Of a stretch of DNA of 64,000 bases, positions 4,225 through 64,000 are shown piece after piece. Location: positions 96,001-160,000 of the forward strand of contig CAWEJX010000004.1 in NCBI GenBank assembly GCA_963809485.1, written 5' to 3'. The position numbers and the translations under genes are program-made. The stretch's first letter is position 1; each line of letters opens with the position of its first letter. Below the pieces are notes generated by a model. The model searched no databases. It was not told the DNA's origin and worked only from the letters and a program-made list of their open reading frames with translations. This DNA comes from an uncultured Acidobacteriota bacterium. GTDB lineage: Bacteria; Acidobacteriota; UBA6911.

Positions 4225-4286
4225 ATTATCGTCAGAACCGGTATGTCGCACTTTCAATCAAAGCATACATCAGGGGGCATAAGGAT

Positions 4287-5552
4287 ATGAGCAAAGCGCT
4301 TGAGCAGGACAAGACTCCACAGGAACTGCGACGCGAAAGAGAACAAAGAATCACGGACGCCATCAATCTTAGAATTCCGGACAGGGTTCCAGTCGCTTGC
4401 GATCTGGGTTTCTTCGTGGCCAAATACGCCGGCATACCCTGCTCCGCTGCCTACTATGATAGCGATGCATGGTTGGCGGCGTACCGAAAGACACTCCAGG
4501 ATTTCCAGCCCGACATGGCGTTTGTCCGGGCTCCCACTTCAGGAAAAGCTCTGGAATATATGAATCCGAGATTTCAGCGATGGCCCGGTCACGGGGTAGA
4601 TCCCAACCATGGGATGCAGGCGATCGAAATTGATAGCCTGAAGGACGACGAATACGACCTCTTCATCAACCATAATGCGGACTTCGGCATCCGATGCCAT
4701 TTGCCGCGTATCTACGGAAGCCTGGAAGCTCTGTCGATGCTTCCGCAGCTGTCCAACACGAATTGGGTTGAGCCCTGGGCTGCGCAGACGCTAGCCATGC
4801 TTGTTACGGAACCCAAAATCGAGGCCGCGATTGAAAATCTTCAGAAGGCCGGCCGGGAGATGAGGAGCTTCCAGCCTAAGGTGGACGAATTCAATCAGCT
4901 GCTGCTCGACTACGGCATACCGCAGTTGTACCAGGGGGCGGCGATGCCACCCTTCGACGTAATTTCCCACAGCGTGCGCGGCATGAAGGGTACGATGCTG
5001 GACATGTACCGCCAGCCTGACAAGATCCTGGAGGCCTGCGAATTTTTGCTCAGGAAAACGCTGGAAAAGCCGATTGCGCCGCCTAATGAATACGGCAACC
5101 TGAGATATTTCATGACCAATACCAGGGGTTCCGACGACTTCATGTCCATGAAGCAGTTCGAGACCTTCTACTGGCCAACGTTTAAAAAGCTTGTCCTGGC
5201 GCTGGTCGAGCGGGGAGTGACTCCGTGTATTTTCTTCGAAGGCAACTTCACATCACGTCTGGAGCGCCTGCTGGAATTCCCGAAAGGAAAGGTGCTCGTC
5301 CGCCTCGATACCACGGATATATTCAAAGCAAAAGAAATCCTCAAGGATCATCTTTGCATTGAGGGGAACATCCCGTCTTCACTTCTGCAGATAGGATCGG
5401 TCCAGGAGGTTAAAGACTATTGCAAAAAGCTGATCGACACCGTGGGCAAGGGCGGCGGTTACATCCTGGGACCCAGGAGTTCCACCGATGAGGTCAAACC
5501 GGAAAACCTTAAAGCCATGATCGACTATACAAAGGAATACGGTCGGTATTAG
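4287..5552 (+). CDS. uroporphyrinogen decarboxylase / MtaA-CmuA methyltransferase family protein
   Basis: PDRVPV N-terminus; PFDVISHSVRGMKG; FETFYWPTFKK; GNIPSSLL...GGGYIL...EVKPENLKAMID..KEYG C-terminus. Confidence 0.85.
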   Translation: MSKALEQDKTPQELRREREQRITDAINLRIPDRVPVACDLGFFVAKYAGIPCSAAYYDSDAWLAAYRKTLQDFQPDMAFVRAPTSGKALEYMNPRFQRWPGHGVDPNHGMQAIEIDSLKDDEYDLFINHNADFGIRCHLPRIYGSLEALSMLPQLSNTNWVEPWAAQTLAMLVTEPKIEAAIENLQKAGREMRSFQPKVDEFNQLLLDYGIPQLYQGAAMPPFDVISHSVRGMKGTMLDMYRQPDKILEACEFLLRKTLEKPIAPPNEYGNLRYFMTNTRGSDDFMSMKQFETFYWPTFKKLVLALVERGVTPCIFFEGNFTSRLERLLEFPKGKVLVRLDTTDIFKAKEILKDHLCIEGNIPSSLLQIGSVQEVKDYCKKLIDTVGKGGGYILGPRSSTDEVKPENLKAMIDYTKEYGRY

Positions 5553-5854: not shown

Positions 5855-6934
5855 GTGGTCCGACCCCGACTCTTCACCATACTGGCTCTGATCTGCATGT
5901 TGCTGACTGGATGCGGTTCTCAAAAGGGACCGGATGCCGGAGATCCGGATCCGGTAATACCCACGACTGCCCCGGCCGCGCTGCACGCGCCCTTTTTCCA
6001 GACCGGCTTTGCCTATTCCCACATCGGCGGCAGCTACGACAGCGACGCCTCGTCCCTGGAACTCGAAAAGATTCGCGCCGCCGGCGGCAACACCGTCCAG
6101 CTCCTTGTCTTCGCCTACATCTACAAGCTGAACGAACCAGAGATCGGCATGATGGGACAGGAAGCTTCGGAACGGATCCTCCTTGGAGGCATTTCCCGGG
6201 CAAAGGCGGCGGGGTTGCGAACCATGGTGAAGCTGCAGATGTGGGGGCCCGGGTTTCAAGATGACAAGTTTTCCGCGGACATCGGGATGACCAATGCTGC
6301 AGATTGGCGAGCATTCATGGCCAATTACCGGCTTTACGTGTTGCGCTATGCCCGCCTGGCGGCAGAAAGCAGCGTCGACATTCTATGCATTGGCACGGAA
6401 ATGGCCCAGGCCACGCAGTCCGCATACACCACCGCTGACTGGCGCGCCCTGGCCAAAGAGGTCCGGTCATTTTACCGCGGGCCGCTTACTTATGCTGCCC
6501 ACAGCAGCGAGGTCGAGGGAATCCCATTCTGGGACAGCCTCGACTACATCGGTATCGACGGCTACTACCCGATCGCCCGGCTGACTTCCGCCCTGGAGAA
6601 TCTTGAGCGCCTGTCGCATCGATGGAACAGGCCCGTGCTCTTCACCGAAGCCGGATTCTCTTCCAGCCCTTATGCACTGACGGAGCCCTGGAGGCCGGGG
6701 CCAAGTGCGGCAGCTCCCGGCTCCGTCCGGCTCGAGCTCCAGGCGAAGGGGTGGGAGACTTTGCTGGCAGAGCTGTGGCGCCGCGATTTTATATGGGGAG
6801 TCTATGCCTGGAAATGGCATCCCAATCGCGCATGGGGCGGCCCGAAAAACGCCGACCACACGCCCCAGGGGAAACCCGCGCTGGAGGTTATCCGCCGGTT
6901 CTATACCAGGCCTCCGGCTCGCGCCGGCCAGTAA
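5855..6934 (+). CDS. glycoside hydrolase family 113-like lipoprotein
   Basis: lipobox LTGC; IGTE and LFTEAGF catalytic Glu motifs; FWDSLDYIGIDGYYPI; start position uncertain. Confidence 0.8.
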   Translation: MVRPRLFTILALICMLLTGCGSQKGPDAGDPDPVIPTTAPAALHAPFFQTGFAYSHIGGSYDSDASSLELEKIRAAGGNTVQLLVFAYIYKLNEPEIGMMGQEASERILLGGISRAKAAGLRTMVKLQMWGPGFQDDKFSADIGMTNAADWRAFMANYRLYVLRYARLAAESSVDILCIGTEMAQATQSAYTTADWRALAKEVRSFYRGPLTYAAHSSEVEGIPFWDSLDYIGIDGYYPIARLTSALENLERLSHRWNRPVLFTEAGFSSSPYALTEPWRPGPSAAAPGSVRLELQAKGWETLLAELWRRDFIWGVYAWKWHPNRAWGGPKNADHTPQGKPALEVIRRFYTRPPARAGQ

Positions 6935-7069
6935 ATCCGGGCTTTCAGTTTATTGACCTCGCTCAGGAATCCCAAATAGCCTGATAGCAAAAAATATCGC
7001 CAATCTTCATGCAGATTACTTTTGTTGATTTTCTATTGGAGTTATTGCGAGATTGCGCAACAATTTATT

Positions 7070-7756
7070 ATGGTCTCACCACAAAAAATTATCCGGAAAC
7101 GCAGCCGTCGCGAAATCCTAAGAATGGGCTCCGCCGTCAGCGGCATCGTCGCAAGTGGATCCATACTGCGCACATCCAGTCTTCTGGCCGCACAGGAGCC
7201 GGCCTCAGCCCTTCCCTGGCCCTGGAAGGAAATCGAGCCGGCCAGCATCCAGGAACGCGCGTATCAATCAACATGGTCAAAAAACGCCTGCATGTTCGGC
7301 ATCCTCGAGGCTGTGCTTGGGACATTGGCCGATAAATACGGCGCTCCTTACAGCATCTTTCCGGTGGGCGCCGTTTTATACGGCAGCGGCGGCTTTGCCG
7401 GCACCGAATCACTATGCGGCGCCATCAATGGATGCGGGCTGCTTTTCGGCCTTTTCGCCAGGAAAGAGCGGGACATTTTCGCTCTCTCGAGAGAAATGGC
7501 TCGCTGGTACGAGACTGCGAACCTGCCGGCCTACAAGCCGAAGGATCCCAAATTGGATATCCCCATTGTCCAGTCGGTAGCCGGTTCAACCCTCTGCAGT
7601 ATCTCGTCGAACGTCTGGACCAAGGTCTCCGGCCACAAGCTTCTGAGCATGCAGCATATGGAACGATGCAGCCGTCTTGTCGCCGATGTCGCGATGCAGG
7701 CCGTCACCCTTCTTAACGGTTACGGTACCGGCAAGAGTCCTGTAAAAAAGGGCTAA
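7070..7756 (+). CDS. C-GCAxxG-C-C family redox protein with Tat-like signal
   Basis: SRREILR twin-arginine motif; NACMFG...GGFAGTESLCGAING...STLC...ERCSRL. Confidence 0.8.
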   Translation: MVSPQKIIRKRSRREILRMGSAVSGIVASGSILRTSSLLAAQEPASALPWPWKEIEPASIQERAYQSTWSKNACMFGILEAVLGTLADKYGAPYSIFPVGAVLYGSGGFAGTESLCGAINGCGLLFGLFARKERDIFALSREMARWYETANLPAYKPKDPKLDIPIVQSVAGSTLCSISSNVWTKVSGHKLLSMQHMERCSRLVADVAMQAVTLLNGYGTGKSPVKKG

Positions 7757-8343: not shown

Positions 8344-9849
8344 TTATGACAAATACTTGACGGCGTTCTCTCCTGCAATGCGGCCGGAGTTGAGGGCAAA
8401 GCCGACCAGGTGCCCGGTGAGGCGGTAGCAGTAAGCCTCCGATTCCCAGCACCCGGAGGTCGAGCCCGCTGCGTACAGCCCCGGGATTGGATTGTCCTCA
8501 GTATCGAGCGCCTGCATGCGCTCATCGATCTTGATCCCGCCATACGCGTCGCACAATGCCACGTGACTCTTGACAGCATAGTAGGGAGGAGTCCGCAGAG
8601 GCAGCAGATATCTGCGGTCTTTGGCAAATAAAGGATCGTGCCTGTCGTCGCAGGCGGCATTGTATTCTTCTATCGTAGCCTTCAGGACGGCCGGATCGGA
8701 TCCCATCCAGGCGGCAATTTCGCCCCAGGAGCCGGATATCTTCAAATCGCCCTTATCCGCCTGTTTGCGCATTTCCCTCTCCAGACCGGGCAACGGAGTC
8801 GCCGCTGAAACCGGCAGCCAGTTGGCGCGGGAGGCGGCTCCGGGCCTGATAAGCCCCTCCTTTTCGATGGTCCGCATCGTGTCCCTGTCGAAAAGCGTAT
8901 AGCAGATTCCGTCCGGTTGCAGGCAGACTGCGTTGCCGAAGGCGAAGAAAGCAAGGTTGTAGCCTTCGTCGATGAATCTTCTGCCTCTTTTGTTCACCCA
9001 AAGCATCTGCGGTTCCCAGGCAAGAAACCACAGCGAGATTTTTATGAGCGACCCGTCGGGTCCCTTTGCGTCCATCTTCAACATCTCAGAATCGGACTTG
9101 GGCTTGAGGAATGGCGCGTGCAGGTTCATCGCGCCCATGCCGGCCGTCGCGGCGCCTATTTCAGCGGCCATTATTATACCATCCCCGGTATTGCTGGGCG
9201 GCCCGTCGTAGGAGATCGTGTCATGGAAGTACGGGCAGTATTTCTTCAGCATCTCCTTGTTGTTGCCATATCCGCCGGTAGTCACGATGACGCTTCGCGC
9301 CTCTATTTTAAATTCGCCCTGTTTGGATTCCGCCATAACCCCGCTGATTTTGCCCTTTTCATCCCTCAATATCTTCTTCCCGGGAGTGCGTGTGAGTATT
9401 TGAACTCCCAGGGCCTGACAGTTTTCGCGCAGCGTTTTCATCAGCGCGTTGCCGTGCCCCTTCACCGAATGGCGCACCAGAGGCACCTGGTTGGGGAAAT
9501 ACTGTATGAGCTCGAAGCTCAATCCCTTGCTTTCCAGCCAGCCGATCGTGTCCCCGGACTTGTCGATAAACGCGCGCACAATCCTGGGATTGATTCTCGT
9601 CCAGTGCGCCCATTCCATGGCTATCTTGAAAAGCTCGTCCTTGCGGGCGTCCACGCCCTGCCGTTTCTGAACCGGGCTTTCCGCGCCGAAAATGTCGTGG
9701 GCCATGGCAGTACTGCCGGCCGCAGAGCCTGCTTTTTCAAGCACAATGATGCTCTTGCACCCGTTTTCCGCAGCAGCCAGGGCTGCCGCCAGGCCGGCGC
9801 CGCCTCCGCCGATCACAACCAGGTCTGCCTTTAGGTTTTCAGCCGTCAT
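8344..9849 (-). CDS. FAD-dependent oxidoreductase (flavocytochrome c / fumarate reductase flavoprotein family)
   Basis: GGGGAGLAAA dinucleotide-binding motif; TGGYG; NTGDG; GGIKID; PIPGLYAAG; SGRIAG. Confidence 0.9.
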   Translation of the reverse strand: MTAENLKADLVVIGGGGAGLAAALAAAENGCKSIIVLEKAGSAAGSTAMAHDIFGAESPVQKRQGVDARKDELFKIAMEWAHWTRINPRIVRAFIDKSGDTIGWLESKGLSFELIQYFPNQVPLVRHSVKGHGNALMKTLRENCQALGVQILTRTPGKKILRDEKGKISGVMAESKQGEFKIEARSVIVTTGGYGNNKEMLKKYCPYFHDTISYDGPPSNTGDGIIMAAEIGAATAGMGAMNLHAPFLKPKSDSEMLKMDAKGPDGSLIKISLWFLAWEPQMLWVNKRGRRFIDEGYNLAFFAFGNAVCLQPDGICYTLFDRDTMRTIEKEGLIRPGAASRANWLPVSAATPLPGLEREMRKQADKGDLKISGSWGEIAAWMGSDPAVLKATIEEYNAACDDRHDPLFAKDRRYLLPLRTPPYYAVKSHVALCDAYGGIKIDERMQALDTEDNPIPGLYAAGSTSGCWESEAYCYRLTGHLVGFALNSGRIAGENAVKYLS

Positions 9850-10022
9850 AGCAACACGCCTCCCCTCTGATATGCAGTTCGAAAAATGATGCCACGAATT
9901 ATTTAGAATTATATGAATTCCGGAACGGGTATCACCAAAATTCGCGCAATTTTTCTCAATCCATAGTAATTTTGCTGTTGTTTGGCAGGATCGGACAACG
10001 GCATTCAAAGGAAAAAGCCCCC

Positions 10023-11047: not shown

Positions 11048-12727
11048 CTACCTCCACTTGTCGACCTCGACGCTCTGCAGATACATCAGTCCGCCGATGC
11101 TGTAGTAATTGTTGTTGGTTCCGCCGGTGACGATGATTTCCATCGCATTGGGCTGGAACCAGGGCTCCTGCCCTGCCGGCGCTTCCATCAGGTATTTCTT
11201 GAAATCATCAATCGTATTGTAACCGGCATTCTTGACAAAATTGGCGATCGGCGGGCTGAGGACCGCCGTGGCGCCGAAAAGGAACGGGGCCTGTGTGATA
11301 AAGATATCCTTGATGATCTTGGGGAAATTCATCTCTTTGCCCCAGACGTTGGCCCTCCAGTTTTTCGCCGATAGAACGCCCCATCCTTCAAACAGGCTCA
11401 CGATGTTCTGGTTCGGCTTGAAGCCCTTTCGAACTGAAAATGGCTGCCACGGGGAATCGCGCTCGTTCTCGGCAATGACGATGTTGATCAGGTTCATGGG
11501 ATTCCCCACGGTGCCCATGTAGGTCGTCCCCACTTTGCCGCAGTTGCCCAGGTTGATGGCGATCAGGCTCCACGCTCTTCCAATGGTGGTATTGGCATGG
11601 GCATACGGCCCCAGCGCGCCGATCTCATAGTTCAGCCCGATCTCGTCGCGGATCGCGCCGTTGATTACCAGGGCGCCCACAAAGCCGTTGTCGGACACCG
11701 AGATGGCTTCCTTTCCGGTGGACGCCACCGCAAGCAGCAGCGGCAGATATTCCGGTTTGCAGCCGGCCATGACTGCATTCACGGCAACGTCTTTGACCGT
11801 GAAGGTCCAGTACTCAAAATAGCCGCCGGTGTTGGTGGGCGACATCTTGCCGACAATTTCATCGGGATCGTGGCTGGTTCCCTTCAGCATGTCGGCGACC
11901 TTCTCCTCGGTCGGCAGAACCACCGGCAGGAAATCGGTCCACCGCTTTTCCAGAAACATCTTCTGAAGATTATCGGGAGTATCCGTAAATGTAGCCGGGC
12001 CTTTGTCCCGGACCAATTCGCCGGTCCTCTTTTCTTCAGCCGTCAACGGCTTGGTCAGATGCTCGACGATTTCCTGCATGACGTTCTTTTTGCTGATCGG
12101 ACTGATGCCGTTGACGACATCCCGGCGCAACTGTTCGCGGGTTTTTCCCCAAACCGGACCGCGAACCCACTCGATGCGCAGGCCGGGCATGCCTTTGAGA
12201 AGGGCGGCCTCTGTTTCCTGTTTGTAGAATTCGGAAAGGACCAGCGGAACGGCGGGAATACCCATGCTTGCTTCGAAATTGATGGAGTGGCCGACAACTG
12301 CCGGCGCACATTGGCTTCAATGGCCCATCCCGATGATTACGGCAGCGGCATTCTGCTTGATTTCGGCCCACAACTGCGGATCTTCAGCCTCAAAGCCCAT
12401 GCCGCCTTTTCTCTTGAACACAACCTTGGTCTTGGGCATGTTCTGTGTAAACCAGTCCACCATTTCGAGCAGAAGGTTGTCTCCTCCCACAAAGCCGTCG
12501 TCGACAATGTAGATTGTTTTGCCGTCGAGGGAGGCCGGACGCGGCGCCATTGATTTCAGTTTTACAGGGGGAGGATTCCCCAGCGGATTAAGCACCGTTA
12601 TCCTGGTCTCAGCGGAGGCTGCCGCCTTATTCCCCTGTGCCATAGCCTGATTGTCCAAAGCCGGGAAGCCGCAAAACAGGCCCAGGCAGAGCGCCGTAAT
12701 GACGGCCGTCGATATAAAGCCCTTCAT
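11048..12727 (-). CDS. exported UGSC-like selenoprotein (559 aa, Sec137, GMGH-U-SQC)
   Basis: ORFs 12317..12727 and 11048..12265 are in frame across a TGA at 12319-12317; signal peptide; SECIS-like hairpin; colinear with the uninterrupted paralog 25619-27379. Confidence 0.88.
12290..12305 (-). promoter_or_regulatory. bacterial SECIS-like hairpin GCCGGC-AGTT-GTCGGC
   Basis: starts 11 nt after the UGA; G in the apical loop; same geometry in three paralogs. Confidence 0.75.
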
Positions 12728-13059: not shown

Positions 13060-13294
13060 GTCAGGTACCTCCGGCAAAGCGGAGGCTTGAAAGATTTGAA
13101 CCGCTCAAAGCGGTTGGACTAGTTCCGCCGGTCTTGAGCGCTGACTTACGCGGGCAAAAGCCGATGAGGCGCTTCCGATCCCCGCCGAACAAATCGGCGT
13201 TTGTCAGCGCTTTTATCAGCGTTTCTCAGCGTTTCAAAATACGGAGCTGTCAAACTCTTTGAGTCCCCCGGCAGAGCCGGGGTTTACCAATGTA
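13060..13294 (-). mobile_element. IS200/IS605-type MITE copy 4 (internal deletion)
   Basis: both ends present; deletion junction TTCCGATCCCC|GCCGAACAAATC. Confidence 0.8.
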
Positions 13295-13390
13295 ATTATG
13301 CTGCCGGCGTCGGAATCCTGCCCGAATTGTCGTAATATGCCGCATAATAGCCGACTATTGATGTCGTCGAACACAAAGGAGGTTCGCATC

Positions 13391-14803
13391 ATGAATGCAA
13401 GTTCAGCGAGAAAGACAATCCTGGAGCCGGCAAGGGATATAGAAATCTGCCGGGAGGCCGACGTCGTTGTTGTGGGCGGCGGGCCGGGAGGTATCGGATC
13501 GGCTCTGGCCGCGGCGCGCAGCGGCGCAGACACGGTGCTGGTGGAGAGGTACGGCCACCTCGGAGGCATGGCTACCGGCGGCCTGGTCACCATCATTCCG
13601 AACTTGAGCACCATAGACGGGAAGCAGCAGATAGCCGGCCTGTGCCAGGAACTGATTGACAGGCTGGACGCCAAAGGAGCAACGCACTATCCGAAGAAAG
13701 AGGACTGGGGCACCACGGACGAAAAGCTGGTCAAGTATTACATCGATGCAAACCTGGCCTGGTTCTACATACGCGACGACCTGAATATCGGCCGCAAAAG
13801 AGTGCTCTACACCGCCCTTTTCGATCCCGAAATCATGAAATGCGAGTTGAACACCATGATGGAGGAAGCCGGCGTAAAGCTGTATCTTCACTCGTGGGGC
13901 ACGCGGCCCATAATGGAGGGGAATACGGTTAAGGGCGTCTTTATCGAAAACAAGTCGGGAAGACGGGCGATCCTGGCAAAAGTGGTCATAGATTCCACCG
14001 GGGACGGCGACCTGCTGCAGCCTGCCGGCGCCGAGTGCGATACCCGGATGATCCCCGGCCTGAGAATTGCGGCCTTCGCATTTCCCTTCTGGATCGGCAA
14101 CATTAATATGAAGAAGGTCGAGGAATTCCGGCAAACCCAGCCCGACAAATACGCCGAATTGATGCAGGATCTTCGCCGGCAGGGCGGCGCCGCATTTTAT
14201 ATGAAGGACCTGGTGAAATATCACGACGGCGTCGTCTGGTACCACCCTTTCTTCCCATCAATGAAACAAGCAGATAATGATGAGATCAATCGGGTAGAAA
14301 TCGAAGGCCGCAAGAAAATGCTTCTCTCGTATGAGTTCTACCGGAAAAACGTGCCCGGTTTTGAGAACAGCTACGTCGCCCTCAGTTCACCGCAGCTTGG
14401 CCTCCAGGGTGGACAGAGAGTGGTCGGGGAGTACGTCTGCACGGCGAAAGACATGACGTCCGACGAAGTATTTCCCGACACCATTGCCATTTTCCCTGAC
14501 AACGACAACGGCGAGATCTCGGCCAAACACCCCAGTGTCTATGTCCCTTACCGAGCCCTGGTGCCGAAGAAAATCGACGGCTTGCTTGTCGCCTGCCGGG
14601 CGTTTTCCTCGGAATGGCAATATAACGAATACTTCAACCTGATCCCGCACTGCATCGCGATGGGGCAGGCGGCGGGAACAGCCGCAGCCTTGGCAGCAAG
14701 CGCAGGCATTCAACCCAGGCAGATTGATTGCGGCGCGCTGCAGAAGCGCCTGTTGCGCCAGGGAGTGATACTGCCCGACGAGATAGCGGGAAAGCGCGCG
14801 TAA
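13391..14803 (+). CDS. FAD-dependent oxidoreductase (FAD_oxidored family)
   Basis: VVVVGGGPGG; LGGMATGG; IDSTGDGD; VPYRALVPKKIDGLLVACR; MGQAAGTAAA. Confidence 0.9.
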   Translation: MNASSARKTILEPARDIEICREADVVVVGGGPGGIGSALAAARSGADTVLVERYGHLGGMATGGLVTIIPNLSTIDGKQQIAGLCQELIDRLDAKGATHYPKKEDWGTTDEKLVKYYIDANLAWFYIRDDLNIGRKRVLYTALFDPEIMKCELNTMMEEAGVKLYLHSWGTRPIMEGNTVKGVFIENKSGRRAILAKVVIDSTGDGDLLQPAGAECDTRMIPGLRIAAFAFPFWIGNINMKKVEEFRQTQPDKYAELMQDLRRQGGAAFYMKDLVKYHDGVVWYHPFFPSMKQADNDEINRVEIEGRKKMLLSYEFYRKNVPGFENSYVALSSPQLGLQGGQRVVGEYVCTAKDMTSDEVFPDTIAIFPDNDNGEISAKHPSVYVPYRALVPKKIDGLLVACRAFSSEWQYNEYFNLIPHCIAMGQAAGTAAALAASAGIQPRQIDCGALQKRLLRQGVILPDEIAGKRA

Positions 14804-25215: not shown

Positions 25216-25618
25216 GGGGGATCCCTCCTCAAGAAAAATTAGCCTGTTTCTGGAGCCGTCCTGTGACGCATGGACCTTTCCGAGCAAGCATAATAAAAGG
25301 ACACTAAACCGATGTCCGTGCATCAATAGGCAATCGGACAGAAACAACAATGCTCTTTGAGGCATTTTTATCACGAATGCGCATCCTGCCGCAACACGGG
25401 AGACAGATAACCGGATTTGCAGGTCTACACCCGAAGCTGCTAGCCGATTTCCATGCGTCAGGCCCAGCGGGTTCTCGAGACTCCACGGTCCGGGGAAACA
25501 TAGTCAAAAAAATCGGCAGCGTCGTGAGATAATGCGCAGATACCGCTTGCTGTCCGCATCAAGGAGGCAAGAAGTGAAAAACGCCAGGAATCCCGGCTCA
25601 AGCTTGGAGGGTAATTCA

Positions 25619-27379
25619 ATGAAAGAGAAAGTTGCGTTCACATGCCTGAATCCTCAGGGTGCAGTCGATATCGCCGCTCCTGCGGGTCTGACCGCTCCCC
25701 GCGTCAAAGACCTGGCCGGCAAGAGAGTCGGCATTTTCTGGGATGGCAAAAAGGGCGGCGACAACTTCTGCATCGCGCTGGAAGAGGCTCTGAAAAGGAA
25801 ATATCCCACAGCCCGGTTCATCCGCCTCGTATGGGGAGACGTCGAGGCGGCGGAGAAAAGCAAAAACGAAGTGGACACATTTGTCTTTGGTGTCGGCGAT
25901 GCGGGAATGGGGGGATGGGGCCAGTGCCGGAATGTAATGGACCTGGAAAAACTCGGCAAACCCGGAATTTTTGTAGTGGGAGAGAATGCCATTCACACGG
26001 CAAGAATGTCGGCGCGCGACTCGGGAATGCCCGGATTGCGGATCGTGAGCCTGCCTTCCATAGATTATTACCCCAACCGCTCGACGGCAGACGGACTGAG
26101 ACCTGTGGTAGAGGCACGCATAAGCCTCATTATCGACGCCTTAACCAAACCCCTGACGCCCGAGGAGAAGAATCCATCTTTGATGCCGCAAAGAGAGTTT
26201 CCGGCAAAAGTCAGGATTTCCGCCGAGAGCTATGAATTCGCACTGGATGAGTTCAACCGGGTATACCTCGAAAACCATTGGGGGGACGGCTTACCCCTTA
26301 TTCCTCCCACAAAAAAAGCCGTCAAGCGGATGCTTTCGGGGACCAAACGTTCCCCGGACGAGATTCTGGGCAAGATCCCCTTCCGCAACGGAATTGCCAC
26401 GATCGGGAAGGTGGCTGTGAACGCAGTGATGGCGGGCGCCAGGCCGGAGTACCTGCCCGTGATCATCGCCGCTATCGAATGCCTTGCCGAGGAGGGCTCC
26501 TTTTCTCACATGATGAGTTCGGAGGGCTCGTTCACCCTGATGATCATGGTCAGCGGGCCTATCTGCAGCGAGATCAACATGAATTCCGGCGTGGGACTGT
26601 TGGGCCATGGATGGCAGGCCAACAATACCATCGGTCGTGCCGTAAGATTGTGCATGACGAACCTGGGATATCTATGGCCCGGAGAAATCGATATGGCCCT
26701 GATCGGCCGCCCTTCCTCGCACACTTTCTATACCTTCGCCGAAAACATGGAGCAGAGCCCCTGGGAATCATTCAACGCGGGCCTGGGTTACGGGCCTGAG
26801 GACAGCTGCGTAACGCTTTCCACGGTTGGCGGCGCCGGTGGATTGGGCATGAAGATATACGGCGGAGGCGTGGTGGAACCCTGGGATGCTGCGGAGGTCC
26901 TTCAAAGCATGGCTGAGGAAGTGGCCGGCGATAGGGCGATATTTGCGGCTTACAAACTGGGAGTCGCCAATTATTTCGCTCATTTCCGCAAGCACATCAT
27001 GATCATTCATCCCGAACTGGCGATCATGCTGCAGCGTCTCGGATACAAAACCAAACGCAGTTTGCGCGACTACTTTTACGAGAGCTCAAGAGTGCCGTTT
27101 GAAGAACTCACCCTGGATGAGGTCAAGGGCTTAAGAGACAGGATGAACACAAAGCCGGGCGGAGTGTTCTTTGCGAACGATTCGATTGCCGCAAGCCAGC
27201 TTCCGCTTTTTAAGGCAGCTCTCAAACCGGGCGGCAAAGTCCCGGTAGTGAACCCCGACGACATCCACCTGATTGTCTCCGGCAGCATACCGGGATATTC
27301 GTTCGGCATGTCGTATATGCGTTCGGCGCACAAAACAAAACGCATCCAGGGGGCCAAGTTAACACGGTCCGGCCGCTGA
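25619..27379 (+). CDS. UGSC-like protein lacking Sec/Cys (GVGD-A-GMG), cytoplasmic
   Basis: colinear with the three selenoproteins (LNP.G...APR...L.GK; W.DGLP.IPPT; VAVNAVMAGA.PEY.P; ANNTIGRA); GGAGG RBS; no signal peptide. Confidence 0.85.
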   Translation: MKEKVAFTCLNPQGAVDIAAPAGLTAPRVKDLAGKRVGIFWDGKKGGDNFCIALEEALKRKYPTARFIRLVWGDVEAAEKSKNEVDTFVFGVGDAGMGGWGQCRNVMDLEKLGKPGIFVVGENAIHTARMSARDSGMPGLRIVSLPSIDYYPNRSTADGLRPVVEARISLIIDALTKPLTPEEKNPSLMPQREFPAKVRISAESYEFALDEFNRVYLENHWGDGLPLIPPTKKAVKRMLSGTKRSPDEILGKIPFRNGIATIGKVAVNAVMAGARPEYLPVIIAAIECLAEEGSFSHMMSSEGSFTLMIMVSGPICSEINMNSGVGLLGHGWQANNTIGRAVRLCMTNLGYLWPGEIDMALIGRPSSHTFYTFAENMEQSPWESFNAGLGYGPEDSCVTLSTVGGAGGLGMKIYGGGVVEPWDAAEVLQSMAEEVAGDRAIFAAYKLGVANYFAHFRKHIMIIHPELAIMLQRLGYKTKRSLRDYFYESSRVPFEELTLDEVKGLRDRMNTKPGGVFFANDSIAASQLPLFKAALKPGGKVPVVNPDDIHLIVSGSIPGYSFGMSYMRSAHKTKRIQGAKLTRSGR

Positions 27380-47198: not shown

Positions 47199-48245
47199 TC
47201 AGTTGCCGACATAACGAGCATAGAGGGATTTGGCAACCGCTACATCGTATGTGCCGTTGATAATGGCCCGTCCGTCAGGAAAAACGGTCAACTGATAGCC
47301 GTCAATGGTTGCTTTCAGTAGAAACCGGTTGCGTTTCAGATGGGCGAGCGGGCCGAGTCTTTGGGCCAACTCTTCCAGGTCGATCCGGGTGTCTTCACGC
47401 CGTCTGATTTGCACCGAGTTACGACCGCAGAGTGTCGTCACATCGGCGCCCAATCGTCCATCAAGATAGGCAAAATCCTTAAGCCCGCAGCACGGACAAT
47501 CGCGTTTCCGGTGAGGAGCGCCGATCGCTTCGTGGCGGTTGTCCCAAAGATCTGTGGATATTATTTTGCGGTTTACGGCTTCCCTTCTGCCTGCCAGAAT
47601 TTTAAGCGCTTCTGCCACCTGAGTCGCAGCAATGACTGAAACGATCGGGCCGATCACGCCGGCAGTGTCGCAGGAGGGCGATACGCCGGGCGGGGACGCA
47701 TCCTCGAACACGCAACGCAGGCAGGGGGTTTCTCCCGGCAGCACTGGAAATGTCAGCCCATAGGATCCCACACACGCCCCATAGATCCAGGGGACATTAT
47801 TTTTTACCGCATAGTCGTTGATCAGAAAGCGCGCCTCAAAATTATCGGTGGCGTCCATAATCAGGTCAAAGCCGCCAAGAAGATGGTCTGCGGACGCGGC
47901 ATTCAGGTCCTCAACCAGCCCTTCAACCTTGATCAGCGAATTTGCGCAGCAAAGCTTTCTCTCGGCTGCTATGGCTTTGGGCATAACAGCCTTGACGTCT
48001 TCCTCGTCGAACAGTATCTGCCGCTGCAGGTTGCTCTCCTCTACAAAATCCCGGTCGACAATGCGCAACGTGCCGACACCTGCACGCGCAAGCAGCGAAG
48101 CCTGCACCGTGCCAAGGGCTCCGCAGCCGACAATGACGACGCGCGAGGCGATGATTCGCGCTTGCCCCTCCTGACCGATTCCCTGGAATAGAACCTGCCT
48201 TGAATAGCGCGAATGCACCGGGGTAATAGTGCCTGATGTCGTCAT
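47199..48245 (-). CDS. ThiF/MoeB-family adenylyltransferase
   Basis: RYSRQ; GCGALG; DRDFVEESNLQRQ; CLRC...SCDTAG...CPCC. Confidence 0.9.
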   Translation of the reverse strand: MTTSGTITPVHSRYSRQVLFQGIGQEGQARIIASRVVIVGCGALGTVQASLLARAGVGTLRIVDRDFVEESNLQRQILFDEEDVKAVMPKAIAAERKLCCANSLIKVEGLVEDLNAASADHLLGGFDLIMDATDNFEARFLINDYAVKNNVPWIYGACVGSYGLTFPVLPGETPCLRCVFEDASPPGVSPSCDTAGVIGPIVSVIAATQVAEALKILAGRREAVNRKIISTDLWDNRHEAIGAPHRKRDCPCCGLKDFAYLDGRLGADVTTLCGRNSVQIRRREDTRIDLEELAQRLGPLAHLKRNRFLLKATIDGYQLTVFPDGRAIINGTYDVAVAKSLYARYVGN

Positions 48246-57098: not shown

Positions 57099-60000
57099 CT
57101 AAAACTGGAACCGGGCGACTATGATCCCCGCTCGAGGTGCAACGGCCACGGTAGTCGTATTGATGTATCCGAAGCCGGAAATCGTCTGGCCGGTGGCCGG
57201 GTTTCTGGTTTGCGTGGCTTGGGCGTTCGTCGATGTGGGACTATTCATCTCGGTGCGGTTGAAAATGTTTGAGAAATCCGCCCGTATATTGATCGAGATC
57301 CCCTCCTTGATCGGGAAATTGCGCGCGAGACTCATGCTTTCACCGGGCCGGCGCTGCTGCCGGTAATCGTTGTAATACGCGGCTCCGGTGCCGAATTGCC
57401 CGGCAGGCGGATCGACCCAGGCGTTCTTATTCAGAACAAATTCCTGGTTCGGGTCGATGCAATGACAGTTGAGATCCTTGGTGTAGAGGTCCTCCCCCGG
57501 TACCCGGTTGGCATAGGTGTTCTGGAAGAGCACCGAGCTGAGCTGATTTTGCGCGACCGGAGCCAGAATCGGCATGCCGCTTGCGTACTGCAAGGTTGCG
57601 CCGATCGTCCAATCCCGGAGTATCCAGGACGCAATCTTGTTGGCATTCCATGTCGGCACGGTGTAATTCGCCGCAATCACGAAAACAAGGGGCCGGGAGA
57701 GCATGGAAAGGTACTTGTTCACGCGCCGGTCGAAAACATTGTTTATCGCTGCGCCGCTTACTCCCATAGCATTCCCCTGCTGCTCCGCACCCATGGTCAG
57801 CTCTTTCTGCCAGGTAAAAGCAGCGGTGAAATCAAGCCCATAGGAATAGCGTTTGGTAACCTTTGCCTGCAAGGAGTCATACCAGGTTCTGCCAAGGGGC
57901 GCCCACATATATCGGATCGCGGGCGTACCGGTGGTCGTGCCTGCAAACTGCGGAAACGGGCGCAACGACTGGGCTACGGTAGACGACATCGGAAAGCCCT
58001 CATAGGGCGGTATGTTGAATCCGCGTTGCGCCGCCAGCGACGAATTCAGCGGAGAGGTCAGCAGCTTCCGGTCATCCGCGTTGTTGACGTTGAGCCCAAA
58101 AGAGGCAATACGCTCGGCTGACAACGCATTGACATTGATCAGGTCGTTGGCTTCCCACCAGGCGCCGCGGTTGCCGACATAGGAGATCTCCACGACCAGG
58201 TTCCTTAAGATCTCGTGCTGAATGCCAATGCTCCATTGGAACTGCCTCGGCGGCCGGCCGGCGTTGCCATCGATTGCGACCGGGGGCGCGCTGAGCGTGC
58301 CTGCAAGAGGATACAAACCGGCATCCAAGACAGGCCATGGCCTCGGAGCAGGCATGCCGTTGCGCAAGAGGCCCGCCGGATTGCCGTATGCGGGCGAGTA
58401 ATACGGGTTGCTGGAGCCGACCTTCCAGGATGCCTGATTTTCGTTGGCTGTTTGGCCGTAAGAGACGCCCAATCCCATACGCAGGACGGTTTTGGGCGTA
58501 ATCTGATATGCGGCTCCCAACCGCGGACCGAATGCATAGGGGTATACCTCCGCGAAGTCACAGTTGCACTGACCCGGTCCGGAGCCTTCATAAATCACGG
58601 CCCCCAACAGGCCGCCCGCGGATGGATTCGGGGTTGTGGGCGAGAAACTCGCGATCCGGCCGTGCGGATCCTTGAAGTACTCCTGGTAATCCCATCTAAG
58701 TCCGTAGTCGAGCGTAAATCTACGGGTAACCTTCCAGGTATCCTGGGCGTATGCCGACCATGCGGATTTACCCAGCCGGGGGTCGCTGGGAACCCCGCTG
58801 TTGCCGTCAGCAATAAGCCCCAGGAGAAAACTCGCGTAGGGGAATCCAATGGTGCCACCCTGCAAAGGCTGCCCCAGAATCGAGGGAAGACCGGTCTGCT
58901 CCACGCCGAAGTTGTAATAACCGTAGGAGGGGGCATAGAGTGTGGTGGGATATTTCTCCTGGCGCAATTCCGCGCCGAACTTCAAGGTGTGGTTATCCTT
59001 CACCCATGTAAGGCTGGCGCTTCCGGAAGGTTTGAACATAACCGATTTGGTTTGCATATAGGGGCCCATGTTGCCGGTCGCCATGCTGACCGCTCGCGCC
59101 GACATGCCGCCGCGAGCCGCCGAGAGTCCAGAAATGAATGGGAAGACGGTGTACAGAGATCCCGGAAGACCGAGTTCTTTGAGCTGGTCAAAATTGGTAT
59201 CGTATGCGGGATCCAGGAACTGCAGATTCTGGACACCGGCAGCCAAATGAAGCACCATGGTCGGCGTGACGGTATAATCAAAGGCCATCTGCGCTATATA
59301 AGACTCCTGGTCCGTATTCCTTTCGGTGGAGACCGGAGAAGGAATGCCGTCTCCCCCCGGAGGCCCGGGCGCGTGCTGGTTCAGGATATCTGTCGATGAC
59401 CAGAAGAACGAAAGCTTGGTGCGGTTGCTCAGGTTGTGGTTGATTTTGAAGGCCGGGATGGTTCGAATGTTGGGGCTGTCCCAGGGATTCAGATAGTTAA
59501 GTGTCACAGCCGCGCTCGTGGGTTCCGGAATGAGATTTTGGATCTTAACCGCGACCGGATCGAATCGGTCCTGCGGAATTGTGTTATTGGTAAACGGATC
59601 TCGAACGCGCAGTCCGTTAACGAGGCGTTCGGTCTGCGGATCGTATATCGTGCCTTCCATAATTGGACGGCCAAGGGGATCGCAATTGGGATTCGCCGTT
59701 GGACAAAGATTCTTCCCTGTCAGAGCTTGGCGGAAATCGCCGCTGCGATAAGCGAGAGTGGGCATCGTATATGTGGTATTAAACTTGGTCACCTCGCGGT
59801 ACTCCTCGAAGCTGAAAAAGAAGAACGTCTTATCGTGGCCGTCGTAAACCTTTGGGATGTAGACCGGCCCGCTGAAGGTGAAACCATAGTTGTTCCTGCG
59901 TACGCGGCTCTTCCTGTTTATAAAGGGCGTACTTGCGTTTAGCGCTTCATTGGACCAGTAGTCGTATGCGCTTCCGTGGTAGGAGTTGGTGCCGGATTTC

Positions 60001-60716
60001 ATGGTGATATTGAAATAGCCGCCGCCGGCCTGTCCGAACTCGGCGGCGTAGTTGCTGGTCTGAATCGCGTATTCCTCAATTGCGGCCATGCTTTGCTGGC
60101 TCATCCCCGTGCTCTGCTGCAGCATTCCGTTTGTGGCCTCCATTCCGTCGACCCGGATGCTCATCGAGGCGGAAGGGGCGCCATTGACGCGAAACCAGGC
60201 TCTGTTCTGGTAGAGCGTGCCCGGAAGCAGCGTCATCACCGCATAGGGATCTCGAATGATATTGGAAAATCCTAAAATGGGCAGGTTATCCACGCGCGTG
60301 CCGGTGACATTATGGCTGAGTTCGCCGCTTTCTGTTTTCAGGAGCGGCGCATCGGCGCTGACCGAAACAGTTTCGGTGATGGTGCCGACCTCCATCGCGA
60401 TATCAATGCGCAATGTCTGCGCAACCATGACCGTGATTCCGGTTCGTAAATACTGCTTGAATCCGGCCTGGGTTGCCGTGATCTGATAGACTCCGACCGG
60501 CAGTTGGGCCAGGGTGTAATTGCCAGTCGCCGAACTGACAGTCTGATAAACGGCCCCCGTTTGTGTGTTTTTGGCTTCAATCTGGGCTTTCGGGATCATG
60601 GCGCCGGCCGGGTCCGAAATGGTCCCGGTTATGGTGCCCCGGTCGCTTTGAGCCGAAGCCGGGGCTGCTGCGAAGATTAGACAAGCAACTGCAATCAAAC
60701 ATGCAACTGAACGCAT
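57099..60716 (-). CDS. TonB-dependent receptor (Oar-like, carboxypeptidase-regulatory-like N-domain)
   Basis: signal peptide; GTITGTISDPAGA; TSNYAAEFG..GGG; KSGTNSYHGS; QDTWKV..TLDYGLRWD; C-terminal RFQF. Confidence 0.93.
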   Translation of the reverse strand: MRSVACLIAVACLIFAAAPASAQSDRGTITGTISDPAGAMIPKAQIEAKNTQTGAVYQTVSSATGNYTLAQLPVGVYQITATQAGFKQYLRTGITVMVAQTLRIDIAMEVGTITETVSVSADAPLLKTESGELSHNVTGTRVDNLPILGFSNIIRDPYAVMTLLPGTLYQNRAWFRVNGAPSASMSIRVDGMEATNGMLQQSTGMSQQSMAAIEEYAIQTSNYAAEFGQAGGGYFNITMKSGTNSYHGSAYDYWSNEALNASTPFINRKSRVRRNNYGFTFSGPVYIPKVYDGHDKTFFFFSFEEYREVTKFNTTYTMPTLAYRSGDFRQALTGKNLCPTANPNCDPLGRPIMEGTIYDPQTERLVNGLRVRDPFTNNTIPQDRFDPVAVKIQNLIPEPTSAAVTLNYLNPWDSPNIRTIPAFKINHNLSNRTKLSFFWSSTDILNQHAPGPPGGDGIPSPVSTERNTDQESYIAQMAFDYTVTPTMVLHLAAGVQNLQFLDPAYDTNFDQLKELGLPGSLYTVFPFISGLSAARGGMSARAVSMATGNMGPYMQTKSVMFKPSGSASLTWVKDNHTLKFGAELRQEKYPTTLYAPSYGYYNFGVEQTGLPSILGQPLQGGTIGFPYASFLLGLIADGNSGVPSDPRLGKSAWSAYAQDTWKVTRRFTLDYGLRWDYQEYFKDPHGRIASFSPTTPNPSAGGLLGAVIYEGSGPGQCNCDFAEVYPYAFGPRLGAAYQITPKTVLRMGLGVSYGQTANENQASWKVGSSNPYYSPAYGNPAGLLRNGMPAPRPWPVLDAGLYPLAGTLSAPPVAIDGNAGRPPRQFQWSIGIQHEILRNLVVEISYVGNRGAWWEANDLINVNALSAERIASFGLNVNNADDRKLLTSPLNSSLAAQRGFNIPPYEGFPMSSTVAQSLRPFPQFAGTTTGTPAIRYMWAPLGRTWYDSLQAKVTKRYSYGLDFTAAFTWQKELTMGAEQQGNAMGVSGAAINNVFDRRVNKYLSMLSRPLVFVIAANYTVPTWNANKIASWILRDWTIGATLQYASGMPILAPVAQNQLSSVLFQNTYANRVPGEDLYTKDLNCHCIDPNQEFVLNKNAWVDPPAGQFGTGAAYYNDYRQQRRPGESMSLARNFPIKEGISINIRADFSNIFNRTEMNSPTSTNAQATQTRNPATGQTISGFGYINTTTVAVAPRAGIIVARFQF

Positions 60717-61038
60717 CGGGTGTATCCTCCTATCGCCTGCAATTTTATTGGCGCACAGAAACACGCACCGCTTATGGCTCCCTTGCCAACTTTTCGACTA
60801 TTGCATCCCCTCTCAACCTATTGCCGCATCGCATAGCTCGCTCAGATTGGCGGCGGTGACAGCGCGCCCTTCTCGGGCAACAACGTCAAGGAACGGCAGG
60901 GGCGTTATCGGGCTCCACTGAAAATCTGTTTCTGTTTGACAATATTATCTGCGGCGGTGTCCATTTGCGTGAGTTGTACGCGCCGCTACTAATGGTGATT
61001 TTAAGCTAGTCGATTTGTCAACTCGTTGTCAAGAAAAT

Positions 61039-61058: not shown

Positions 61059-61373
61059 GGAAGTGACCCGGGCGGCAAAACTATGCTATAGTTGTCGCGT
61101 CGTGGGGAATCTCCAGACCAGGCGCTTTTATCTAACATATTGCCTAATACCAGACGCGGCCGGGAATCCGTGGAGGGAGATCTCCGTTCTATGCAGGCGG
61201 CCTGTGAATCATGTTTTGGACAAAGCGGCGGCAGGCTGCCGCATCCCAAACCATCTATAATTTTTTTATAATTTTTTTCGGAGGTTGTGATTCCCGATGT
61301 GGTTGAAGAAAGCCTGACGCACTAAAAACACAGCTATGGACCAACAGGATCAAAAATCAGGAAAGGGCGGCTT

Positions 61374-63161
61374 ATGAAAAACAGAGCAAGTTGTTTGCTG
61401 ATAGGGATCTTTTGGGTGACGGCCCTTTTGTCGGAATCGCTTTGGGCCGCGGATATTACAAAGATCACGGTGCTGAATCCGCGAGGCGTTCAGCCCCCGA
61501 TACGCTTGATACCCATGGCTCCCCGCCTCGATACATTGGATGGGAAGACGATCTACGTCGTGGATACCAAGTATCCGTTGACAAGGCCATTCGTACAGGA
61601 AGTCTTCAATGTGCTCAAGGAGAGGTATCCAAAAACAAACTGGATATTCCGGGACAAAATCGGCAGCTATTTTGATGATGATCCCAAGCTTTGGGCCGAG
61701 ATCAAGGAGAAAGGCCACGGCATGGTTATGGCCGTCGGGCATTGAAGCACCTGCTCGCCGGCGGTCGCCGGCCATTGTATCTCGGTTGAGAAGTTGGGTG
61801 TGCCAAGTGCCCCCATCATTACCGAAAGGTTTCAGGACCTTGTCCGGACCATTTCATGGAAGAAGGGGGTGCCGAACATGCGCTTTACATTTGTTCCGCA
61901 TCCCGTTGCAGGCAAAGCCGCCGACATTTGCCGTCGATACTTGCTGGGCAACGATCCGCTGACAGGAAAGCCGGTTGTGGACGAACTTGTGGCGGCCTTG
62001 ACGCGACCGCTGTCCGCGGACGACATGAAGAAGGGATTTCTGACAAGAGATCCGCGGCCGAGAATGCTGAAACCTGATACCGCAGCAAACCTGGAAAAGC
62101 TATTCAATGACAGTCTGTGGACGGACGGGCTTCCTATTGTGCTTCCGACAGAAGACAAAGTCGCCGAGATGCTCAGGGCCACCAGTCACAAGGCGGATGA
62201 GACCGTAGGCACGATGCGTCCGTCGCCTCCGCACGAAGCGTGGGAATACACGGTCGAAATGGTTGCGGCCAACGCGGTGATGGCGGGAGCAAAGCCCGAA
62301 TATTTTCCGGTTATCCTGGCCCTGGCCTCAACGGGAGTGACCTCGCTTTTCACATCTACGACGTCTTTTGCCCGGATGATGGTGCTGAACGGGCCGATCA
62401 TCCAGCAGATCAATATGAACACAGGCATTGGAGCCATGGGACCTTTCAATCAGGCTAATGCCACGATTGGAAGAGCCTGGACGCTAATATCCAAGAACCT
62501 GGGCGGAGGAGGGGTTCCCGGCGAAACCTATTTGGGCAGCCAGGGCAGCAATCTCAATTACAACAATCTGTGTTATCCGGAAACGGAAGATGGCTTGCCT
62601 GCCGGGTGGAACCCTCTCCACGTGCAAAAGGGTTTCAAAAAGAACGACAGCGTCGTGAGCACCTTCACGGGCTGGAGCATCAGCAACTATGGCGGCTACA
62701 TAAGCCTGCCGCACAACGAAATCATGAAGTGGCAGCTGCAAAACTTTTTCACGAGCGGGACCGGAAGCAATGGGTCGGCTACTCTCCTGTTGGATCCCGT
62801 GGTCGCCAGAGACCTGAAGGATAGGTTTGACACAAAAGAAAAACTGGTCGAATGGCTCGCTCAAAATGCCACGACGCCGGCCTGGCATTACTGGGCTCGG
62901 GGAGAAGATCAGCTGAAACAGGCAAAATCGGGGGTCGAACCTTTTGCGTCCTATCTGAAATTGGGGGAGATTGCGTCATTGCCCGTTTCGCCCTTCCTCC
63001 GGAGGCCTATGGCTGCGAAGACTCCATCTCAAGGCAAGCCGCCCGACGGCCCTCCGCGCTCCCCGATCGAGATCATTGTGGTGGGAGGAGGCACGAATGC
63101 CTTCTGGGTTGCGGGAGACTTCAGCTATGTCTCCAGTGCTTCCGTCGACAAGTGGAGGTAA
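61374..63161 (+). CDS. exported UGSC-like selenoprotein (595 aa, Sec124, AVGH-U-STC)
   Basis: ORFs 61374..61745 and 61794..63161 are in frame across TGA 61743-61745; signal peptide ending SLWA; SECIS-like hairpin. Confidence 0.9.
61757..61772 (+). promoter_or_regulatory. bacterial SECIS-like hairpin GCCGGC-GGTC-GCCGGC
   Basis: 11 nt after the UGA; perfect 6-bp stem; loop starts with G. Confidence 0.78.
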
Positions 63162-63281: not shown

Positions 63282-64000
63282 ATGAAAAAGAGGATCGGTT
63301 GGCCGGCATTCGCAGTTTGTCTCCTTGCCTGCCTTGTTATTTCGTGCACCCAAAATCCGGAACAGCGGACGCTTACGGTCTTGAATCCTGTCGGCTCGGC
63401 TTCTCCGACTCCGCTGATCCCGATGGCGCCTCGCCTGGATACGCTGGAAGGAAAGACCATCTATATCGTGGATGTGATGTATCCGCTCACTCATCAGCTA
63501 TTCGAAGAAATGCAGAAAGTGCTGTCCGAAAAATACCCCAAGACGAACTGGGTGGTCAAAAGCAAGGCGGGCACCTACTTTGATAATGACCCTAAACTGT
63601 GGGAAGAAGTCAAGGCGCAAGCCCAGGGAATGATCATAGGCGTCGGCCATTGAAGCAGCTGCACGCCGGCGGTCGCCAGCCATGCTATTACGGTCGAGAA
63701 ACTTGGAGTGCCCACAGCCCCCATCGTCACCAGTCGATTTCAGGATGTCTCAGAAGCCACTGCCGCCAGCAAGGGCATGCCCCGGGCACGATTCACTTAT
63801 ATCCATCACCCGGTTTCGAACAAGCCTGCGGCGGAGTGCCGAAAATACATCGAGGGCAACGATCCTTTGACCGGCAAACCGGTGGTTGAGGAGATTGTAG
63901 CCGCTCTAACCAAACCATTATCGGATGAGGATAAAAAGACCGGGTTCGTGGAAAAACCTCGGGAAAGGCTGCTAAAACCCGATACAGCGCAGAATCTGGA
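63282..64000 (+). CDS. lipoprotein UGSC-like selenoprotein (Sec124, GVGH-U-SSC), runs off the window
   Basis: lipobox-like LVISC; TGA 63651-63653; the frame stays open (SSCTPAVASHAITVEKLGVP...KPDTAQNL) and aligns with the upstream paralog. Confidence 0.88.
63665..63680 (+). promoter_or_regulatory. bacterial SECIS-like hairpin GCCGGC-GGTC-GCCAGC
   Basis: 11 nt after the UGA; same loop as the 61757 hairpin; one C-A mismatch. Confidence 0.7.

Follow-up and report, generated by a model that had tools for sequence, protein, structure and literature searches.

Within the window, by which we mean the whole 64,000-nucleotide stretch analysed (uncultured Acidobacteriota bacterium of the lineage UBA6911, GenBank assembly GCA_963809485.1, contig CAWEJX010000004.1, positions 96,001 to 160,000 of the forward strand), positions 61374-63161 (+) very probably constitute one gene encoding an exported, 595-residue long-form selenoprotein of the UGSC family, with the UGA at 61743-45 decoded as selenocysteine (Sec) by way of a stem-loop and with a Rossmann/flavodoxin-like domain fused to a further domain of ~380 residues. 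UGSC is an already described selenoprotein family and the 61374 gene is a long-form member of it. A hidden selenoprotein read through TGA 61743 had been proposed in a sequence-only reading of the same DNA, and this proposal is supported by Sec/Cys pairs among the relatives, by selection on both sides of the TGA, by a hairpin of the selenocysteine insertion sequence (SECIS) type and by a UGSC domain that continues unbroken across the codon. The features of the gene, with the basis of each in brackets, are as follows:

61359..61367 (+): putative Shine-Dalgarno (SD)-like motif AGGAAAGGG, 6 nt 5' of the ATG (read directly)
61374..63161 (+): predicted selenoprotein gene, 595 codons plus TAA, with TGA as Sec at codon 124 (frame, relatives, codon-position differences)
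61374..61448 (+): signal-peptide-like N-terminus, residues 1-25, MKNR followed by a hydrophobic core and SLWA (by eye; hydropathy of the relative L001)
61470..61934 (+): UGSC domain, residues 33-187, Rossmann/flavodoxin-like alternation of strands and helices (Pfam, AlphaFold2, weak Foldseek matches)
61737..61754 (+): putative redox motif G-H-U-S-T-C, between strand 116-122 and helix 127-140 (translation, AlphaFold2, conservation)
61743..61745 (+): TGA, predicted selenocysteine, residue 124 (frame, aligned codon in relatives)
61757..61772 (+): candidate hairpin of the bacterial SECIS (bSECIS) type, GCCGGC-GGUC-GCCGGC, loop at 61763-61766 (folding energy, consensus, synonymous-site entropy)
62007..63158 (+): C-terminal domain, residues ~212-595, belonging to no named family and lacking a relative of solved structure (Pfam, PDB, Foldseek, profile search)

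One reading frame across an in-frame TGA

Read directly, the frame runs from ATG 61374 to TAA 63159-63161 with TGA 61743-61745 as its sole interruption, so that the earlier claim of an open frame beyond this codon is borne out. When the TGA is translated as U, the product comprises 595 residues and ends in SVDKWR; both this length and the resemblance of the end to the EVDKWR of a paralog elsewhere in the window had been claimed, and translation of the two genes agrees. Residue 124 stands in the context ...MAVGH-U-STCSPAVAGHCISVEKLGVP..., the Sec-spanning stretch being ...AVGH-U-STCSPAVAGHCISVEK. In a 96% identical relative (L001) the counterpart of the SD-like motif AGGAAAGGG is AGGAGAGGG.

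The sequence-only reading had named a homolog search for Cys/Sec pairs as a check, and a genome scan, which gave 569 confirmed relatives, was used for this, codons being counted in the best 80 loci. At the column of residue 124, 62 of these have TGA, 15 TGC, two CTG and one ATG, a pattern that is far beyond chance, and 79 of the 80 have no further in-frame stop within the match. The exception, L068, is a Cys form with one additional in-frame TGA inside 6001-7626, which may stand for a second Sec or reflect an error or a pseudogene. The 80 loci are titled as belonging to 13 named phyla, with Sec forms present in 11 of them. In a FastTree tree of 84 rows, most deep branches are Sec forms. Cys forms arise in at least four separate places (two proteobacterial clades, L037 and L079), each surrounded by Sec forms, and the Leu/Met forms are confined to a single nested clade.

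Comparison of the window gene with six relatives revealed differences mainly at third codon positions on both sides of the TGA; against L002, for instance, the differences at first, second and third positions number 22/15/58 upstream and 138/108/279 downstream. The third-position excess is equal upstream and downstream, which shows purifying selection on either side of the TGA and in one frame, and it follows that the 5' segment is translated in this frame. The same observations bear on the explanation that the gene is a pseudogene or that the TGA is a sequencing or assembly error. A nonsense mutation would indeed look like one in-frame stop, but this TGA recurs, in an identical column, in 62 independent loci as well as three paralogs of the window, and purifying selection acts on both flanks, which leaves this explanation effectively refuted.

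A word-indexed protein search returned 5239 relatives at E <= 1e-3, 120 of which were listed. Every one of the 30 closest among the matches listed (65-93% identity) is a truncated open reading frame (ORF) that starts within reference residues 136-231, just past the TGA, and is named a hypothetical protein; automated annotation thus systematically misses these selenoproteins. The other 90 matches listed are full length (~590 aa, ~52% identity) and have Leu (86) or Met (4) in the Sec column, with the motif G-Q-L-D-T-C. The Leu/Met clade (P0027-P0126, comprising these 90 of the 120 matches listed, and the loci L010, L021 and L035) bears Dehalococcoidales and Chloroflexota names. One 430-aa database protein, P0016, has its first ~76 residues, including the signal peptide, joined straight to the C-terminal domain with the Sec region skipped; it is either an internal deletion variant or the product of a chimeric contig and was set aside.

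Translation table 11 splits 61374-63161 into 61374-61745 (123 aa, ATG start) and 61794-63161 (455 aa, TTG start), exactly the two ORFs to be expected were the TGA a true stop and the gene a split one, yielding a 123-aa fragment and a 455-aa protein from TTG 61794, halves which may associate. Public gene callers likewise annotate the downstream part alone in 30 of the 30 closest relatives among the matches listed. The break would, however, fall inside one confidently modelled domain and inside the UGSC match (residues 33-187), the 15 relatives with a Cys codon and the three with a Leu or Met codon are continuous, and a model of two genes leaves the Sec-specific synonymous constraint after the TGA (described below) unexplained. 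As the sequence-only reading had stated, the downstream ORF has a TTG start only and no clear ribosome-binding site: no well-spaced SD motif precedes TTG 61794, and the GAGAAG present there abuts the TTG directly. Independent initiation at this TTG, which would have spoken against readthrough, is unsupported, the start lying inside the UGSC domain and the relatives having no conserved start, with annotated starts anywhere between residues 136 and 231. We therefore consider a split gene most unlikely and prefer a single gene that gene finders cut in two because the in-frame TGA encodes selenocysteine.

Genome-wide reassignment of TGA was also considered and rejected. TGA is the normal stop of 12 of the 25 Pfam-supported genes of the window, and the code is therefore standard and the recoding local.

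The hairpin downstream of the TGA

The hairpin at 61757-61772 starts 11 nt past the TGA, its loop 17 nt past it, and it consists of a 6-bp stem closed by a GGUC loop. A folding energy of -12.8 kcal/mol (z -2.48) was calculated for it, a value reached by 4 of 200 shuffles. The constraints published for bSECIS elements in a figure legend (PMC13188914, Fig. 2) are a loop of 3-9 nt, a stem of 4-16 bp, a G in the first two loop positions, a distance of 16-37 nt from the UGA and a minimum free energy (MFE) of <= -7.5 kcal/mol, and the hairpin satisfies every one of them (6 bp, GGUC, 17 nt, -12.8 kcal/mol). The ribosome would be expected to read UGA 61743-45 as Sec under the direction of the stem-loop at 61757-61772, through the bacterial SelB/tRNA-Sec mechanism.

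The hairpin coincides with a conserved peptide, P-A-V-A-G-H, in GC-rich DNA, and it was therefore tested for an excess over what the coding sequence alone would produce. For this the entropy at third positions of conserved four-fold-degenerate codons was determined, 87-122 columns being comparable. This specific test was decisive. In the TGA genes, the third positions of codons +5, +6 and +7 after Sec rank lowest in entropy among all these columns (rank 0.00): the 45 genes with a GGUC-type hairpin have H = 0.15, 0.55 and 0.43 at these codons, compared with a median of 1.69, and the 18 genes with a shifted GUC-loop hairpin have H = 0. The 15 TGC genes show nothing unusual at these columns (rank 0.73-0.91). 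Cells that pair under the same helix amount to 77.9% in the TGA set versus 56.7% in the TGC set, and compensatory G:C/A:U alternatives are seen in two column pairs, 15:30 with 18 and 12 sequences and 18:27 with 46 and 2. Because the synonymous sites are frozen in TGA genes and ordinary in TGC genes, the RNA structure is under selection only in genes that have the TGA. Such Sec-only freezing of synonymous sites provides a clean natural control for finding SECIS elements inside conserved coding sequence.

A number of results weigh against decoding of this kind or do not discriminate. The MFE of the 12 codons after the site, compared with synonymous resampling, gave a mean z of -0.78 for 65 TGA genes versus -0.34 for 15 TGC genes, only a weak difference (Mann-Whitney p = 0.16). 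A generic hairpin rule (at least 4 bp, G-first loop) was satisfied by 64 of the 65 TGA and 8 of the 15 TGC genes and in no gene exceeded synonymous shuffles; Fisher's test at >= 5 bp gave p = 1.0. Folding of 48-71-nt segments did not differ significantly from dinucleotide shuffles (z -0.93 and -0.22), nor was the single-helix covariation score above column shuffles, in an alignment that mixes two registers (GGUC at +20, GUC at +24). Rfam gave no match anywhere in the window at gathering thresholds, and the hairpin of the paralog directly downstream fails the bSECIS consensus. Genes for selA, selB, selD and tRNA-Sec were not found in the 64-kb window (no tRNAs in the tRNA scan; 40 ORFs scanned for domains). 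Finally, the nearest uninterrupted homologues carry Leu or Met and not Cys (90 of 90 among the matches listed), an apparent weakness that is resolved by the genome scan, since it gave 15 TGC loci among the best 80.

That no Sec machinery was seen in the window would also suit a reading of the UGA as something other than Sec, with a near-cognate Cys or Trp inserted or another recoding signal at work, and a hairpin could in principle stimulate readthrough of other kinds. Against this, Cys but never Trp is found at the homologous position, the hairpin with its G-first tetraloop at 17 nt agrees with the SelB-type consensus, and other genes of the window use TGA as a normal stop. The family of the N-terminal domain is, moreover, described as Sec-containing in the passages of the literature devoted to it (PMC1976440, PMC2398784, PMC13188914). 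Readthrough without Sec is thus very unlikely, and decoding of UGA 61743-45 as selenocysteine is the reading retained in what follows.

Domain architecture, putative chemistry and known systems

Residues 33-187 match the Pfam family PF24696 ('UGSC family') with 92.2 bits against a cutoff of 25, the match spanning the TGA, and the same family is matched by all 61 aligned relatives. The NCBIfam model NF041046 ('UGSC family (seleno)protein'), a single-domain model of 147 residues, is matched by the window protein with 62.4 bits, which is under its equivalog cutoff of 125 bits; the best match among the 61 relatives is that of L047 (84.4 bits, E = 7.4e-24). An AlphaFold2 model built from the 61-sequence alignment has a predicted local distance difference test (pLDDT) value of 89.5 and a predicted template-modelling score (pTM) of 0.88 over the whole protein, pLDDT reaching 91-98 in each 10-residue block of the UGSC domain. 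Foldseek comparison of the whole model with the PDB returned weak local flavodoxin/Rossmann-type matches only, with template-modelling (TM) scores <= 0.19. A thioredoxin fold, as suggested in 2008, is unsupported, the model being an alternation of strands and helices and the weak Foldseek matches being of flavodoxin/Rossmann type.

Around the Sec position, the residues His-1, Cys+3 and His+10 are conserved: His-1 is present in 61 of the 62 TGA and all 15 TGC loci, Cys+3 in all 62 and all 15, and all 62 TGA loci retain the UxxC spacing. In these loci +1 is S 55 times and G four times, and +2 is T 45 times, S eight times and G eight times; the window protein does not have the literal U-G-S-C of the family name but U-S-T-C. 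The sequence-only reading had also pointed to an extra Cys near the motif (GHC, +11 from Sec), which is indeed present, but is not conserved (33 of 62 TGA and 6 of 15 TGC loci) and is absent from the other two Sec paralogs of the window.

Comparison of 79 redox forms with 93 Leu/Met forms disclosed five joint switches (H123->Q, U/C124->L, H134->F, D474->S and N575->D), which constitute a lead and not a test, since the Leu/Met forms are a single clade. A polar core in the C-terminal domain is kept in both sets (D251, T259, T270, E276, N300, N339, N349, N362, R367, E403, E405, H416 and D592), and the redox site accordingly seems, on these alignments, to be dispensable for the role of that domain.

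The C-terminal ~380 residues, when folded separately, reach a pLDDT of 83, and a profile of this domain retrieved 5923 cluster representatives, among which 1461 have E <= 1e-30. The family is therefore very large, with Sec in 11 named phyla and selenocysteine as the dominant state. The best Foldseek match to the C-terminal domain, a class I fumarate hydratase, was rejected as no match at all (E = 8e-3, probability 0.28, TM 0.19, root-mean-square deviation 16 Å).

In mechanistic terms, an H-U-x-x-C motif would be placed at the strand-to-helix junction of a Rossmann/flavodoxin-like domain fused to the ~380-residue C-terminal domain. Sec124 and Cys127 might form a selenenylsulfide redox couple, or Sec124 might act as a nucleophile resolved by Cys127, in either case with assistance from His123 and His134. 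Judged from the motif, such a redox or nucleophile couple flanked by two histidines is the most likely chemistry. The C-terminal domain would hold the substrate of this couple, and for the 61374 paralog an extracytoplasmic reaction would be expected. On function, several points weigh against this picture: the redox role is deduced from the motif only, Foldseek of the C-terminal domain alone against the PDB produced no meaningful match, a sequence-profile search of the PDB gave no match at E <= 10, Pfam revealed no family in common among 50 C-terminal domains, and the 136 neighbour ORFs of 35 loci contain no conserved partner gene.

The signal peptide claimed in the sequence-only reading is plausible. 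By eye, MKNRASCLLIGIFWVTALLSESLWA is signal-peptide-like, and the N-terminus of L001, which differs by one residue, has a hydropathy of 2.15; AlphaFold2 places a low-confidence helix at residues 5-22. All three Sec paralogs of the window have signal-like N-termini, the third being lipoprotein-like by eye. A crude hydropathy rule was passed by 24 of the 80 relatives, some ~19 more have a twin-arginine-like MNRRKLLSLLG... start by eye (some of these passing the hydropathy rule as well), and many others start directly at the UGSC domain. Twin-arginine-like N-termini (MNRRKLLSLLGMSPALLAG...) were observed by eye on the Sec relatives L014, L020, L022, L026, L028-L030, L032, L036, L037, L046, L047, L059, L061, L062, L069, L070, L075 and L079. 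Such starts suggest export of a folded selenoprotein by the twin-arginine translocation (Tat) route.

A UGSC-containing selenoprotein was first listed in 2007 for a gutless-worm symbiont and Hyphomonas neptunium (PMC1976440), and UGSC is among the most abundant selenoprotein families of the Global Ocean Sampling (GOS) metagenome, represented there by 255 sequences with Sec and 21 with Cys (PMC2398784, Table 2). Reviews of 2022 and 2026 still give it as uncharacterised (PMC9312934, PMC13188914), and the passages on UGSC in these four papers (PMC1976440, PMC2398784, PMC9312934, PMC13188914) assign it no function. The window protein resembles this family in its PF24696 match, which is well over the cutoff, in having Sec in a UxxC motif, in lacking an assigned function, as does the family, and in the excess of Sec over Cys among its relatives (62:15 here, 255:21 in the GOS table of PMC2398784). 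It differs in falling under the NF041046 cutoff, in having U-S-T-C and not U-G-S-C, and in being four times longer, with an extra domain of ~380 residues and an export-signal-like N-terminus. The GOS study mentions a 'UGSC/Unknown_1' fusion (PMC2398784, main text and Fig. S1A legend), likewise a combination of UGSC with a conserved domain of unknown function and possibly the same architecture. According to that paper Unknown_1 is limited to a few aquatic organisms, unlike the 5923 cluster representatives and 13 named phyla found here.

Thioredoxin-fold selenoproteins with UxxC or CxxU motifs (Trx-, Prx- and DsbA-like proteins of marine selenoproteomes) are similar in that UxxC stands at a helix start, thiol/selenol redox activity is presumed and some members are exported. 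In contrast with them, the model of the window protein is a parallel strand-helix alternation, and no thioredoxin-fold protein is among the Foldseek matches listed.

Another comparison is with the selenoprotein B models of NCBIfam (GrdB, GrdF, GrdH and PrdB; TIGR01917, TIGR01918 and TIGR04483). The matches are weak but consistently placed: among the 61 members, the Sec segment is matched by GrdB in nine (best E = 0.0065), PrdB in five, GrdF in four, GrdH in three and TIGR01918 in three. The stretch matched is ~328-399 of the 431 GrdB positions or 127-175 of the 238 PrdB positions, the region that should hold their Sec (U151 in PrdB; PMC11229817), so that the strand-Sec-helix segment of nine of the 61 members weakly resembles the Sec part of those profiles. 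The differences are considerable: all matches are far under the curated cutoffs (best 15.4 bits versus 602; for TIGR01918 12.4 versus 65.45), the window protein itself has no match at E <= 1, and a pyruvoyl partner subunit (PrdA/GrdE-like) was not found among the 40 window ORFs and the 136 neighbour ORFs of the 35 loci. It is a feature of PrdB that its Sec is a nucleophile acting on a substrate held by a partner subunit. Since the matches lie under the cutoffs, the window protein has none and no pyruvoyl partner is nearby, a link to selenoprotein B can be put forward only as a hypothesis. It would make the UGSC domain a distant relative of the Sec module of Stickland reductases (GrdB/PrdB), fused to an unclassified substrate-binding or catalytic domain of ~380 residues and working as a single-chain Sec-dependent reductase outside the cytoplasm, a proposal to which we give only a small chance. 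By eye, the paralogs of the window have Sec-type or lipoprotein signals, and twin-arginine-like ones are found on many relatives. If true, the proposal would delimit a large class of enzymes that spans phyla, prefers Sec over Cys about 4 to 1 and has a substrate yet to be discovered.

Paralogs and gene neighbourhoods

A six-frame motif scan detected the Sec architecture three times in the window (11048-12727, 61374-63161 and 63282-64000), and a fourth, divergent family member is also present. Identities are given relative to the 595-aa protein:

11048..12727 (-): predicted Sec paralog 1, 559 aa, GH-U-SQC, TGA 12319-12317, C-terminal EVDKWR (41% identity)
63282..64000 (+): predicted Sec paralog 3, GH-U-SSC, TGA 63651-63653, directly 3' of the 61374 gene and cut by the window end (56% identity)
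25532..27379 (+): divergent paralog 4, 615 aa, UGSC plus C-terminal domain, no TGA, neither Sec nor Cys at the column (Pfam UGSC E = 2.2e-14; 29% identity)

Paralog 1 has a hairpin at ~12307-12289 with the loop AGUU (-10.2 kcal/mol, z -2.22). That of paralog 3 contains a C-A mismatch, reaches only -6.6 kcal/mol and lies outside the consensus rule, and because of this failure the decoding efficiency of paralog 3 may differ. In paralog 4, GD-AGMGGWGQC replaces GH-U-xx-C and the branch in the tree is long; it appears from its sequence to be a non-redox family member of the same genome. Because at least three Sec paralogs occur within 64 kb, this genome suggests a substantial selenium investment by soil or sediment bacteria.

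Tandem paralogs, seen at eight of the 35 loci, are the only recurrent feature of the neighbourhoods: a second family gene adjoins the first in L002, L010, L021, L026, L028, L029, L030 and L035. At several of these loci gene-finding cuts the second gene into a UGSC piece of ~135 aa and another of ~430 aa, implying that further Sec paralogs stand in tandem. The remaining neighbours are scattered and include MFS (major facilitator superfamily) and TctC transporters, oxidoreductases of the flavin adenine dinucleotide (FAD), pyrroloquinoline quinone (PQQ) or TrxB-like types and DsbA-like genes. In L043 and L045 the TrxB-like genes follow immediately downstream; in L016 and L019 the DsbA-like ones lie upstream.

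In the window itself, a 1221-aa protein resembling TonB-dependent outer-membrane receptors (57099-60764, -) lies divergently upstream of the 61374 gene. Paralog 1 is flanked by FAD-dependent oxidoreductases at 8344-10008 (-) and 13259-14803 (+), and FAD oxidoreductases also adjoin L006 and L021. The window further contains a C_GCAxxG_C_C protein (7022-7756, +) and a ThiF/MoeB-like protein (47199-48245, -), both of families counted among those with Sec forms in the parts of the selenoprotein literature that list them, as well as a URO-D-like gene (4047-5552, +), genes of the latter type adjoining the relatives in L017, L018 and L025.

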